A stretch of DNA of 64,000 bases, taken from positions 32,001-96,000 of the IMG/VR virus record IMGVR_UViG_3300021387_000036; one strand, given 5' to 3'. The notes under the pieces were generated by a model. It saw only the letters and a program-made list of their open reading frames with translations. It ran no database searches and was not told where the DNA came from. Shown piece by piece: positions 3,562-64,000 of this stretch (its first letter is position 1; the number at the start of each line of letters is the position of its first letter). This DNA is from a virus. Its lineage: Duplodnaviria > Caudoviricetes. The translations under genes were made by a program, and so were the position numbers.

Positions 3562-6500
3562 TTTCTAACAATAAATTTCCTTGTTCATCTATATCAGTTA
3601 TTTTATAAATTGTGTGCCCTTGAGTTGAAGCGTATTTCTTTACAACAAACATATCATCCCGTCTAAATCCATTTATAATAAGCATCGTTCCTCTAGTAAA
3701 CCATCCTTTTTCTACTATCTTTTTAGTACCGTCTGGTTGAGGTTCACTTAGCTGCCGCTTATACATAGCATACATATCTCTTGTAAATTTAACAGGTACA
3801 ACTCCTTCTGTTGTTAATAATGTAATACTATGTCTACTATCATTTTTACTAATAACTGTTCCCGCTATTCTAAATAATTGATAAATTGGTACAGTTTTTC
3901 TCCAAAATGCAATTACTATTGGTTCAGGATTATGGTCAAAGAAATTTTCAATTCCATATTTTTCCTTGTTTAAATTCACTAATTCATGGTCATGATAATA
4001 AAAACATAATGCATCCATTTCCCATGCAGATAAATTTGTTTTTTTATTATACTTTTTCCATTCTTCTTTAAATAATAGTAAATTATATTCTGCTAAAGCT
4101 TCATCGTGATGTTCTTTTAACCACTCTCTAACATTATTCATATAATAATCATATATTTCTTTTTTCCATATATCTTTTTTAATAATTGAAACTCCTTCAT
4201 TTGCTTCAATATAATCATAATTAAAAATAGGATGATCTTGCATATTTTTTAAATAAAAATTTACTACATTATCTGTCATCACATAATATTCGGTATTTGT
4301 TTCTCTATCTATCCATCTATTGTTTTTTAAATCTTTATTACAATAAAATATCTTTTTTTCAAAGTCAAGAGAATTTGGAATTATTCCTTTTTCAATTAAT
4401 CCATTAAGATTAGAAAGAGTTAATTTCTTTTTTGGTTCACAGGTATAAGAAAGATAGTATGTCATATTTACAAACCTAGGCTCTTTCTTTGTTTCAAAAT
4501 CTTCCATATAATTGTCAAAAGCTCCACCTTTTATTAAAGAAATCATAGCTGGTTTTTTTATTTTTACTCTATTCATAAAATCTTTAATATTTTTATAAGG
4601 TCTGCCTTTCTTAATTATATCTATCATTTCAGAATTAACACCACTTAAAGCTTTCATTCCAAAAAGAATTTGATTATTTTTTATATCAGGTTTAAAACCA
4701 TAATCAGATTTATTAATATCTACCAATGAAACTTTTATATTATGCGCTCTAATTTCTCCTAAAGCTTTAGCTATTTTTGCATAATCAGAATTTTTCTCTT
4801 TAGCTTCAATATCTTCATTATCTATATCATTATTTTCATCAAGACTTCCGCTATTTATCATTAAAACTGCAGTATCCCAATATATAGGGTTCCACTTTGT
4901 TGCTAAATATGCAGTTTGATAACCTATAAAACTATAAGCAAGAGCATGAATATCTGAAAATGAATATCCTAATTGCGGGCGGGCAACCGCATCCCAAACG
5001 TATCTACCTGCCGCCTCACTTTTAGCTTGTTCTTTTATTTTAACTCTTAATTCTGGAATTTTTGACATTTGCTTTTTACCAATTATTTTTCGTGCTGCAT
5101 TAGCATCTTTTAATGAAAAACCGCAAATATCTTCATCCATTAAACTTTTCATTAATTGCTCTTGGGATATACCTACTCCAAATGAAACTTCAAGATACTT
5201 TTTGAAAGCTTGTTTTTCTTTATCGGATAATCCATAATGATTCATTTCAACTTCCCATGCATTTGAATCATTTTTAAAACGAACATATTTATCCATAGGA
5301 TTTTCTTCTCCATCTGGAGCCATAAGTCTAATTAAACCATTTGTATTACTAAGCTCTTGTATATCATGAGGTTGAACCTTTTTAATCCCCTGACTACCTA
5401 TATCGCTATCAAACTGAAAACAAGCCAATATCTTATTTTCATCTATATTTTTCCACACTTCTTCATTATTTATATCTATAACTTGAGGATGTAAATATTT
5501 ATTATATATTTCTCTAATTGTTAAATCTTGTTCAATTACTCCATCTTCTTTTAAGAAATATATAGTTTGTAATATCATATCTTGAACAGAAGTTAACAAG
5601 AAATCATATTTCGTCATTCCCGCAGCTTCACAATCATGTAGATCATACTGAGTTACAATCTCACCATTTGGTGCTTTCATAAAACATCCAAATTCATATG
5701 GATTACTATCAAATAAAATAACTCCTGAAGCATGAATACTTCTTGCTTTTATTAATCCTTCAATTCCTTTTATTATATCTAATAATCCTGGGTACTTTGA
5801 TACTTCTTGAATGAATAATGCAACTGGCATCCGCCCTTTATCAGGATTACCATTAACCATTTCATCTATTGTCCAGTTAAATCCTCTTTCAATAGGAACT
5901 AAACTCGCTAAATAATTTGAAGTATCTGAATCAATACCATCAAGATAATCTTCACTTCTATACCCGCGGCAAGCGGTAATTATTGCTGACTTAGCTGTTT
6001 CTGTTGAAAAAGTTACAATATGAGTTGCTCCTAAGTTAGTTCTTGATAATTCATCTATATCTTCATTGAAGTTACGTCCTCTTTCTTCTTTAATCTTTTT
6101 CATAATTAAAGGTCTTTTACTTGGACATAAGTCTAAGTCAATATCAGGAAGTTCTATTCTATCTTCATTTAAGTATCTAAAGAATGGGAGATTCCATTCT
6201 ATTGGGTCTAGCTGAGTAACTCCTAGAAGATAATGATTTAATCCTGCACATGAGCTACCTCTTCCCGCGCCAACAAGACTTCCGCAATCCCACATCATGT
6301 CAATATAATGCTGTAAAGTAATAGGATACTTAAAAATATTTGTACCAAGTTTTTCTCCTATTGTTTTCTTTACTTTTGCTTCATGCTCAAGTTCATCAAG
6401 ATAAGTTTGATTATACTTGCCTAATTCTTCTAATTTATTAACGCACTGATTTACCCAATATCTATCATACTTATTATCAGAGCGATACATTTCTGTTAAA

Positions 6501-61159: not shown

Positions 61160-61209
61160 AAAAAGTTGAAATCCATTTTTTATTTGCGGTGGCGCCCGCT
61201 TCCACTCCA
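61160..61209. repeat. Dispersed ~50-bp intergenic repeat, copy 2
   Basis: Aligns with 9263-9311. Confidence 0.7.
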
Positions 61210-61222
61210 GCCAAATAAGCAT

Positions 61223-61255
61223 AAAAAAAGAGGGAATAGTATAAAACTATTCCCT
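61223..61255 (-). terminator. Intrinsic terminator ending the ncRNA transcription unit
   Basis: AGGGAATAGT/ACTATTCCCT 10-bp stem followed by CTTTTTTT. Confidence 0.85.
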
Positions 61256-61259
61256 AGTT

Positions 61260-61300
61260 GTAACTCCTAAACTGGAGGGCAAGGTAGAAGTAGGAGTTAC
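61260..61300 (-). ncRNA. Putative trans-acting hairpin sRNA with CU-rich loop
   Basis: Perfect 10-bp stem GTAACTCCTA/TAGGAGTTAC, 21-nt loop CTTCTACCTTGCCCTCCAGTT. Confidence 0.55.
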
Positions 61301-61304
61301 GAAA

Positions 61305-61348
61305 TGTGTCAATTCGGAGTTGAACCGAATCTAGTCCCTAGCTGACAC
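61305..61348 (-). ncRNA. tRNA-like minihelix (acceptor stem plus T arm, no D or anticodon arm)
   Basis: GTGTCAG/TTGACAC 7-bp stem, TTCGG-TTCAACT-CCGAA T arm, discriminator A. Confidence 0.6.
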
Positions 61349-61552
61349 CTGCTTATTAATGAGCATTTCCGCATGTTTAATAAGCTTTTTACTTTTCAAT
61401 TTTTTATTAGTATAAGCTTCAATAAGCTGTTTTTCATTTAATTCTTTTTCTTCAAATGCTTTATCATTAGTTTTCTTCATATCTTCTATTGAAGGTGAAC
61501 TACAATTTTTAGCCATAAAACTTTTCATTTTTGCAAATTCTGTTTTACTCAT
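61331..61552 (-). CDS. Small basic hypothetical protein
   Basis: GGAGG RBS, MSKTEFAKMK...; last codons overlap the tRNA-like element. Confidence 0.6.
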   Translation of the reverse strand: MSKTEFAKMKSFMAKNCSSPSIEDMKKTNDKAFEEKELNEKQLIEAYTNKKLKSKKLIKHAEMLINKQVSARD

Positions 61553-61565
61553 ATTAACCTCCACT

Positions 61566-62216
61566 CTTGATAACTTAATTATAATAATAAATATTAGACC
61601 TTCGTCTTACTCTGATTACCTTCTGTTTTATTAGACTAATAAGGAGATAAGTCTGAGCTTAAAGGAGCTACCTTTAAACTTCTTATCCCATTCCGTTTTC
61701 CACGGAACTCAGGTTTTGCACCTTTTATCTTATATAGGATTGATTACCTATAACTTTCACGCACCATTCAGAGTTGTTCTTCCTATTAAAGTTTTTCAAA
61801 ACTTTCAAATACTTTTTTATTTGATAATTCATAGCAGATTTGCGCTACTCGTACCCTGACCTTCTCTTATAGATTATTTCTAATCTTCAACTGCTAAACT
61901 TCCTTATTTTGGTATTACTTAGGTTTGCAGCGGGGACCACCCAACATACCACCTAACTAAGCTTCTTCCTCGCAGAGGCTGCCTATTACGGAAGCAAGAA
62001 GACAGTGTCTTAAACAGCGATAACCTCGAGCACGTACTACCAAAGAGCTTGTATTTTCTTTATACAAGTGGATATTTCTATCACTAGATAAATCCGTTCT
62101 TTCTTTCAAAGTATCCTTATCCAAAAACTTATTCTAATGGTTAGGCAGTACTCTCAGCATCATGGCATTGACTCTTCACTGAGTTAATACATTATTATTA
62201 TAATTAAATTATCAAG
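61566..62216 (-). ncRNA. Large structured ncRNA, GOLLD/ROOL-class candidate
   Basis: No ORF over ~650 nt, own promoter, 25-bp terminal stem with one U-G pair, many internal hairpins, adjacent to phage tRNAs. Confidence 0.7.
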
Positions 62217-62303
62217 GTTCTATTTTGTTTTATTTTCTATATATATTATATAAAAAATTTTTATAAATTTCAAATCATGTTGTCATAACTTTCAATTTAT
62301 GAG

Positions 62304-62374
62304 CTGGGGTAGCTGGACTCGAACCAGCCCACTGTGGGTCAAAGCCACATATCCTACCTCTAGATTATACCCCA
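62304..62374 (-). tRNA. tRNA-Gln(TTG)
   Basis: TGGGGTA/TACCCCA acceptor, TGTGG-CTTTGAC-CCACA anticodon arm, GGTTCGAGTCC. Confidence 0.9.
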
Positions 62375-62482
62375 TTGAGACTGTTTGCCTTTACAGACTC
62401 GTCTGTGTTTGCTGACTACCAACAGCTTGGCGGAAGTAGTTTTCATCCTTCGATATGTCCTAAGACATAACCTGCTATTGAA

Positions 62483-62564
62483 TGAGCGAGGAGGGGATCG
62501 AACCCTCAATCCTTGCGGCACGAGGGCTTAAACCTCGTGTGTATTCCAGTTCCACCACTCGCCC
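62483..62564 (-). tRNA. tRNA-Leu(TAA)
   Basis: GGGCGAG/CTCGCTC acceptor, CGAGG-TTTAAGC-CCTCG, long variable arm, GGTTCGATCCC. Confidence 0.9.
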
Positions 62565-62773
62565 AAAATGCGGGAAACTGCCTTTATGACTTTACAAGAC
62601 GAGGCTCCCGCCTCCTTTTATCTCTTTCTATTGGAACCCGTGTGCTGCTATGTTTACACCACGAACCTCGGGAGAAAGAAATGTATCGCTATTGTGGGAA
62701 GAATTTTGTTCCACGATACATTTGTTAAAAGCATATGAGTACTCACCCTCATTCTAGGGCATATGCTAGACCC

Positions 62774-63090
62774 TGTGCAATTTAGTAGGTTTGCCAACCT
62801 TTTAAACTTCGATAGCCTGCCGAAGATGGACATCAATCCCATCATTTCTAGGTCAGCGCTTTGCGTCGTCACGGAGCCACCGCCAAGCGAGTTTTAATTT
62901 GTTTTTACTCAATTCGGTTATCTACCCTCTGAAGTTTTATAATCCACCGTTTATGGCATAGGTCGTGGGACACCTATCGCACCCTCCTTGGATTTCTCCT
63001 CACACTTCGCCGCCACACTAAATGACTACTAAAGGCTCTCACTTTAATTTTAAGATGGACGAGATTTCCCATCAGTAGAGTTATTGCACA
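62774..63090 (-). ncRNA. Unassigned ~320-nt structured RNA between tRNA-Met and tRNA-Leu
   Basis: Terminal TGTGCAAT/ATTGCACA stem, nested helices, elevated GC, no credible ORF. Confidence 0.5.
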
Positions 63091-63144
63091 TTAAGGTAGC
63101 TTCGCTTACCTCGTTACTGTCGGTTAAGGGAGCCGACTCCTAAA

Positions 63145-63215
63145 TAGCAGGTGCCAGATTTGAACTGGCGTCTGGGCGGTATGAGCGCCCCAAGGTTCCA
63201 CTCCTCTAACCTGCG
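63145..63215 (-). tRNA. tRNA-Met(CAT), initiator-like
   Basis: Unpaired C1:U72, GGGCG-CTCATAC-CGCCC anticodon arm, GCCAG-TTCAAAT-CTGGC T arm. Confidence 0.82.
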
Positions 63216-63395
63216 ATATTAAACCTGTGATTTATCTCGTTAGCACAGGTACTCCGCATCCGAAATGAAACGGGGATGAATCCGTTCTATTCTATGTCAG
63301 GGATTGTTAGACGGGAATAGACAAGCCACTTATTTTAACCCAAATTTTTAAAATAAAATTATGACGAGTACTGGTGTATATCCTATAATTTTATT

Positions 63396-63599
63396 TCTTT
63401 TTTCATCTTACATATATATTGTATCAAAAATTTTTATAAATTTCAAATATATTTTATCTTAGGTAAAGTTCCGTTTCCTTATTTAATGCTAATTAACCAC
63501 TTCTGCTAAGGGGATTTCAAAATTTAGCTCCCTAAGAAATAATATGTCTTTTTTCATCTTACATATATATTATAGCAAAAAATTTTATAAATTTCAAAT
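63396..63599 (-). repeat. Duplicated 53-bp promoter unit (63396-63448 and 63547-63599)
   Basis: TTGAAA-N17-TA(C/T)AAT-ATATATGTAAGATGAAAAAAGA; 3 mismatches between copies. Confidence 0.8.
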
Positions 63600-63607
63600 T
63601 ATTTTAG

Positions 63608-63679
63608 TAGTCTGTACGGGAATTGAACCCGTGTCTTCTGGATGAAAACCAGATGTCTATACCACTTGACTAACAGACC
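63608..63679 (-). tRNA. tRNA-Glu(TTC)
   Basis: GGTCTGT/ACAGACT acceptor, TCTGG-TTTTCAT-CCAGA, GGTTCAATTCC. Confidence 0.9.
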
Positions 63680-63811
63680 AATAAGCAACTTTCTTTTGCA
63701 GAAGCTAGATGGGTTATGGTAAGTTGCCACCTTTGTAATCCTCCACATTCACCGCATCCCATCACGGATTCTGTTTCATAGGCATCTACCTTTAGGCGGT
63801 GAGCGCCATAA

Positions 63812-63883
63812 CGAGCTTACAGAGAATCGAACTCTGATTTTCGGAGAGACAATCCGATGTAATAGCCTTTATACTATAAGCCC
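63812..63883 (-). tRNA. tRNA-Asp(GTC)
   Basis: GGGCTTA/TAAGCTC acceptor, TCGGA-TTGTCTC-TCCGA, AGTTCGATTCT. Confidence 0.88.
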
Positions 63884-64000
63884 ATAATAGGAGTTGCACT
63901 CCCGCCCTTACTGGCGGAAGCCCATCCTATTTTATCTAATCTCAACGTTATGCAGCTCTTTACTTTACGAAGCAGCTGCCGCACCGTGTACTTCATTAGT

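Follow-up and report, generated by a model that had tools for sequence, protein, structure and literature searches.

A tRNA-like minihelix over the stop codon of a small phage gene is most likely an unusual variant of a decayed tRNA gene

The window analysed here, a stretch of 64,000 nucleotides, comes from a complete virus record of 130,270 bp that has direct terminal repeats. On its minus strand, a cluster of five tRNA genes (62303-63884) precedes a transcription unit in which a promoter, a ROOL RNA, a small open reading frame (ORF), a tRNA-like minihelix, a hairpin and a terminator follow one another. The promoter-like site (62245-62273, minus strand) matches the consensus at 11 of 12 positions and would serve ROOL, the ORF, the minihelix and the hairpin. 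A promoter-like repeat of about 50 nt is present in three near-identical copies on this strand (63569-63597, 63418-63446 and 62245-62273), each with TTGAAA, 17 nt, TATAAT and a common downstream sequence, and these copies split the tRNA/ROOL region into separate units. Between tRNA-Asp and tRNA-Glu (63681-63784, minus strand) lies a match to the drum RNA that is below threshold (36.1 bits against a cut-off of 43); the identical contig L087 shows the same sub-threshold match.

The ROOL RNA is full length (61576-62207, minus strand; Rfam RF03087, 287 bits). RNA contigs from four gut metatranscriptome runs belonging to two studies span 61578-62174, which corresponds to ROOL. The same four runs gave no RNA contigs over the ORF, the minihelix or the hairpin; these are contigs, hence silent on ends and expression there. 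The contigs of the two independent gut studies are bounded at about 62174 and 61578, which hints weakly at ROOL accumulating as an RNA of its own, separate from the downstream ORF. At its other extremity the unit is closed by a predicted intrinsic terminator (61222-61255, minus strand), which is kept with compensatory changes in the related contigs L101-L103 and L227. A GC-rich patch (61160-61205, minus strand) stands just past the terminator in an AT-rich spacer and has been retained in L101 and L227. Elsewhere the genome carries nine further tRNAs, including a 70-nt tRNA-Cys, and a tmRNA. This tRNA-Cys (L091 2655-2724, minus strand; genome 98655-98724) was called by ARAGORN and falls below the Rfam tRNA gathering score. 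The tmRNA (L091 3114-3390, minus strand; genome 99114-99390) lies in the larger tRNA cluster, scores 73.5 bits with Rfam and has the tag ANNYALAA.

The small ORF (61331-61552, minus strand) encodes 73 amino acids. We consider it a real gene because a GGAGG Shine-Dalgarno sequence is found 7 nt upstream of its ATG and because a profile search gathered a family of 123 cluster representatives. The family proteins combine a conserved KKLKS...LIK core with variable tails and have no Pfam match, and single-protein searches of viral contigs with the ORF and with its 140-aa neighbour returned no relatives. Members of this small, K/E-rich family were seen inside tRNA arrays in the window and in L085, L093, L095, L096, L098, L101, L223, L224 and L227, usually with a tRNA (Cys, Thr, Arg or Lys) soon downstream. 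In some other members a tRNA-Thr begins 10 nt past the stop codon, or a tRNA-Arg comes next.

The initial annotation had described a 44-nt tRNA minihelix overlapping the stop codon of this ORF, and both direct reading and minimum-energy folding bear it out at 61348-61305 of the minus strand. The 5' acceptor strand (61348-61342, 7 nt) consists of the Val and Ser codons of the small ORF plus the first base of its Ala codon, and pairs with 61312-61306 through six Watson-Crick pairs and one G-U pair. It is followed by an 11-nt mini-hairpin of 4 bp, CTAG-GGA-CTAG (61341-61331), the last three bases of which are the TAG stop codon of the ORF (61333-61331), and by a single A at 61330. The T arm (61329-61313) has a stem of five Watson-Crick pairs (61329-61325 with 61317-61313) and the 7-nt loop TTCAACT (61324-61318), with all tRNA T-loop invariants: G53, T54, T55, C56, A57, A58 and C61 are tRNA-like. 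The 3' acceptor strand and the discriminator A occupy 61312-61305; the discriminator itself, at 61305, is followed by TTTC, so that CCA is not encoded, as it is in none of the five window tRNAs. The acceptor and T-arm half of a tRNA is thus complete (7-bp stem, 5-bp stem, T54 T55 C56 R57 A58, G53-C61 and discriminator), with all 12 stem pairs and the T-loop invariants intact, and the gap from acceptor to T stem is only 12 nt.

The minimum-energy fold of the 44 nt is the proposed structure (-13.9 kcal/mol, z -2.3), and it persists within the fold of a 186-nt context (z -5.2). ARAGORN made no call here and Rfam RF00005 gave no match even at E up to 10, a silence that is expected because the D and anticodon arms are absent. 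Two other kinds of tRNA-derived structure were considered and rejected. A two-piece or permuted tRNA in the window would need a matching 5' half downstream, and none was found; as for the tRNA-like domain of a tmRNA, ARAGORN and Rfam put the phage tmRNA at L091 3114-3390 and none at the minihelix site.

RNase P, tRNase Z and the CCA-adding enzyme accept half-tRNAs made of acceptor and T arm (PMC3714273; PMC4919913), and RNase P gauges the T-arm/acceptor stack as a ruler (PMC4919913). The minihelix retains all the features that these three enzymes read on a tRNA, and its cleavage is plausible. Like the CCA-less tRNAs of this phage, it would probably still be cut, chiefly after the discriminator (61305/61304). 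Such a cut after 61305 would part the ORF mRNA from the hairpin-terminator RNA, a separation without which the module would also work. If RNase P were to cut at 61348, it would strip the stop codon from the ORF, and a ribosome that ends translation at 61333-61331 would open up the helix.

The hairpin downstream of the minihelix (61260-61300, minus strand) has 10 bp and a 21-nt C/U-rich loop that is conserved in L101, L227 and L098, where the hairpin lies at 991-1030, 388-429 and about 3592-3633, respectively. A stretch of 18 nt in the loop is invariant in the window, L101 and L227, and a 10-nt core of it is retained in L098; the stems of the four copies are four unrelated sequences. Because the loops are identical over 18 nt on unrelated stems and the terminators carry compensatory changes, we take the hairpin to be the conserved, structure-constrained element of this module. 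Its C/U-rich loop is complementary to the Shine-Dalgarno-like GGAGGGCAAGG, and we see in the hairpin a strong candidate for a phage small RNA or 3'-UTR regulator that has been conserved. Searches with parts of the loop found no occurrence of a 19-mer in viral contigs and only chance coding matches of an 18-mer in species genomes; among the matches listed for a 15-mer in metagenome contigs, only chance ones lay beyond the known lineages.

The initial annotation had allowed that relatives might carry a full tRNA at this place, leaving the minihelix as a deletion remnant, and such relatives exist. L085, L093/L094 and L098-L100 all have the ORF homologue followed by a spacer, a complete tRNA-Cys(GCA), a short hairpin, a terminator and a DUF2828 gene, that is, an intact tRNA at the orthologous position. 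The loop of the L098 hairpin, which lies past the tRNA-Cys, has the same 10-nt core (TTGCCCTCCA) as that of the window hairpin. This makes the two hairpins homologous and puts the minihelix where the tRNA would be. That tRNA processing should release the hairpin, as had been suggested for this element, is a reasonable ancestral logic, because the conserved hairpin is directly 3' and the full tRNA is in place in the distant relatives. The 12-mer CACATACAGCAA was noticed in 13 of the 92 fetched loci (including L085 4241-4252, L093 about 1420-1435, L006, L007 and L020), usually just past the small ORF or a tRNA and often between the arms of a short inverted repeat. The window lacks this 12-mer, which may be a phage promoter or processing signal.

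The position of the minihelix bears on whether it resembles a tRNA only by chance, as nested palindromes at the end of an ORF, acting perhaps as a generic 3'-UTR stabiliser or ribosome-release context. By hand estimates of the analyst, from which all the chance figures given here come, a lone T-arm-like hairpin is expected about once in a genome of this size. The 5' strand is moreover ordinary coding sequence conserved at the protein level, and orphan T-arm-like hairpins are present elsewhere in these phages. However, the 7-bp acceptor stem exactly abuts the T stem, and compact acceptor/T-arm folds are expected, roughly, 0.01-0.1 times per 130-kb genome. The minihelix also lies on the tRNA strand, in the same slot as the tRNA of relatives, and an 11-mer across its T loop occurs at only two sites in the genome, the other being the phage's own tRNA-Cys. 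A chance minihelix on the tRNA strand and in the slot of about 50 nt that holds the tRNA of relatives would be far less likely, and we regard a chance origin as improbable. The orphan T-arm-like hairpins outside called tRNAs are located at L092 527-610 (minus strand; genome about 116527-116610), followed by GCCACC-CA, and at L224 2175-2192; they may be further degenerate tRNA-like genes.

The sister lineages were then decisive for the question of conservation. L101-L103 and L227 (the latter a cluster-mate of the P0125 contig, used in its stead), with ORFs 56% and 67% identical to that of the window, keep the window order of ROOL, small ORF, hairpin, terminator, GC-rich patch and 62-aa gene. 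In L101-L103 and L227 the T arm is absent, as is any counterpart of the 3' acceptor strand, and a covariance model of the minihelix finds nothing there even with filters off. The distance from ORF stop to hairpin is 0-10 nt, an interval about 21 nt shorter than that of the window. The mini-hairpin is absent from L101 and L227, and single folds show the ORF ending there without any significant structure. The fold is thus not conserved among the relatives with the same flanking genes (L101-L103 and L227), as it would be for an element of the t-element or mascRNA type. Since the nearest two lineages have the same hairpin loop and no minihelix, this element is not a conserved or required processing tag.

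A covariance search in related phages had also been proposed. Run over 80 ROOL-bearing loci, the model returned the window minihelix as the sole full-length strong match in 819 kb. Apart from one match in L006, all the others were tRNAs with the middle skipped. The L006 match, a compact look-alike (17.5 bits, E 0.34), was rejected as a homologue, being part of an odd rearranged tRNA. In that structure (L006 5100-5290, minus strand), a 7-bp closing stem encloses, in this order, a T arm with its 3' acceptor strand, a gap of 6 nt and the matching 5' acceptor strand, which is joined to a D arm and an anticodon arm with a GAU loop; the order is that of a circularly permuted tRNA, and its first part is also able to form a 47-nt minihelix. 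Neither Megablast nor blastn matched the region to any GenBank phage. The carriers of the minihelix are three identical contigs, which offer no covariation and from which no rate of change can be inferred.

These comparisons allow us to weigh the possibility that the minihelix is a maintained processing tag, a tRNA pared down to a minimal substrate of RNase P, RNase Z and the CCA-adding enzyme in a place where the cut is needed and decoding is not. RNase Z would free a hairpin RNA with a defined 5' end and give the ORF mRNA a tRNA-like 3' end, and an RNase P cut five codons ahead of the stop would produce a non-stop mRNA, with translation through the 5' strand competing with folding. The top half of the tRNA is perfectly preserved, complete in its T-loop invariants, and its 5' strand is made of synonymous or conservative codon choices. 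It lies directly 5' of the conserved hairpin, matching the place of the full tRNA in the distant relatives, and the second tRNA-Cys of the phage makes decoding here dispensable. The phage encodes its own tmRNA, and the enzymes do take minihelices (PMC3714273). Yet the two nearest lineages lack any tRNA-like element while keeping the hairpin loop and the terminator, and the minihelix is carried by a single lineage whose identical contigs cannot yield covariation. We therefore regard a maintained tag as possible and rather doubtful. We judge it unlikely, somewhat more so again, that a top-half tRNA placed over the stop codon makes folding with RNase P/Z cutting and translation mutually exclusive, such that cutting would free the Shine-Dalgarno-complementary hairpin RNA and leave either an mRNA whose 3' end is tRNA-like or a non-stop mRNA that the phage's own tmRNA could manage.

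To which tRNA the minihelix goes back was explored by comparison with the tRNAs of this and other phages. Among the tRNAs of the phage, its own tRNA-Cys is the best match to the minihelix model. Both start with GTGTC, and these first five nucleotides and the T-loop 11-mer are common to the two, with about 22 of the 31 comparable positions identical, a modest similarity. The discriminator is A in the minihelix versus U in the tRNA-Cys, and two tRNA-Lys of other phages outscore the tRNA-Cys of this phage against the model. A tRNA-Cys is most likely the source; the data agree with this and do not prove it, the tRNA-Lys of other phages scoring higher.

A separate recombinational origin was also considered. 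Phage attachment sites often include part of a host tRNA, namely its T arm and 3' acceptor strand, and the element could in principle be an attP-type fragment of a host tRNA 3' end. The complete 130-kb genome with its direct terminal repeats contains no tyrosine or serine recombinase, though, and the 24-nt T-arm/acceptor stretch has no exact match in 185,579 species genomes or in viral contigs. With neither an integrase nor identity to a host tRNA 3' end, this reading was rejected and is effectively refuted.

We lean, with a modest degree of confidence, towards the minihelix being a vestige specific to this lineage, neutral or nearly so, that consists of the acceptor stem and T arm left from a tRNA gene, which was most likely a tRNA-Cys. 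The vestige is placed above the maintained tag because the sister lineages manage without the minihelix. The ancestor of the ROOL-bearing clade would have lost the spacer together with the D and anticodon arms, the ORF thereby coming to end inside the remnant. The sister lineages would later have lost the remnant wholly and kept the hairpin. Two routes to the present structure can be envisaged. An ancestral deletion might have merged the end of the ORF with the 5' end of the tRNA, in which case V-S-A would be tRNA-derived and the sisters would later have lost the 3' half; or the 3' half alone might have survived, with ORF codons coming to pair with it.

The C-terminal codons of the ORF read V-S-A-R-D-stop in the window, V-T-A-D-N-stop in L101 and V-S-A with a longer tail in L227. 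Over the seven bases of the 5' strand, the window and L227 show two synonymous third-position differences, both of which complete the pairing of the helix. These differences would fit selection in the window or drift in L227, and they are compatible with either route. Counting against a vestige are the intact pairs and invariants, found despite sister ORFs that are just 56-67% identical, as well as the location of the 5' strand in V-S-A codons that are conserved in the sisters. The intact pairing could reflect selection rather than neutral survival.

With the intact tRNA present at the same position in relatives and the fold itself not conserved, we file the minihelix as a variant of the decayed tRNA genes of phage arrays. 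Like these, it belongs to a region rich in tRNA genes and shares their strand, its site being taken by an intact tRNA-Cys in relatives, and with no anticodon it would not decode. Unlike them, it is exactly the coaxial acceptor/T-arm half with perfect pairing, and it is superimposed on the final five codons and stop of a protein gene.

Plant mitochondrial t-elements, MALAT1/mascRNA and the tRNA-like/pre-miRNA units of gammaherpesviruses are tRNA-like folds inside longer transcripts, in which tRNA-processing enzymes set the ends of an adjacent mRNA or small RNA; they are conserved, and their cleavage has been mapped. These are the nearest functional analogues of the window element, also a tRNA-like fold in a longer transcript, but the minihelix is absent from its closest relatives. 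Small RNAs derived from tRNA 3' trailers also exist, such as the 3' external transcribed spacer of E. coli leuZ. The hairpin directly past the tRNA in the distant relatives could be such a trailer, the window having the minihelix instead, whereas in the sister lineages the hairpin is a plain 3' UTR element.

The synthetic half-tRNA minihelices used with the processing enzymes (PMC3714273, PMC4919913) resemble the window element in their 7-bp acceptor stem stacked on a 5-bp T stem, canonical T loop and discriminator. The window element differs in being natural, in its extra 11-nt junction hairpin and in the lack of a 3' CCA. It may itself be a natural minihelix substrate. Taken together, the minihelix is most likely an unusual variant of a decayed tRNA gene and not a conserved device.

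If it is a vestige, the locus would offer a clean snapshot of the decay of a tRNA array, from full tRNA to top half to nothing, around one conserved hairpin. It also indicates that tRNA-like folds in phage arrays need comparative support before a function is proposed for them. The more promising neighbours are the conserved Shine-Dalgarno-complementary hairpin and the family of small proteins travelling with phage tRNAs. Should the remnant still be cut, bacterial viruses would have in it a natural counterpart of the tRNA-like processing signals of organelles and eukaryotes.
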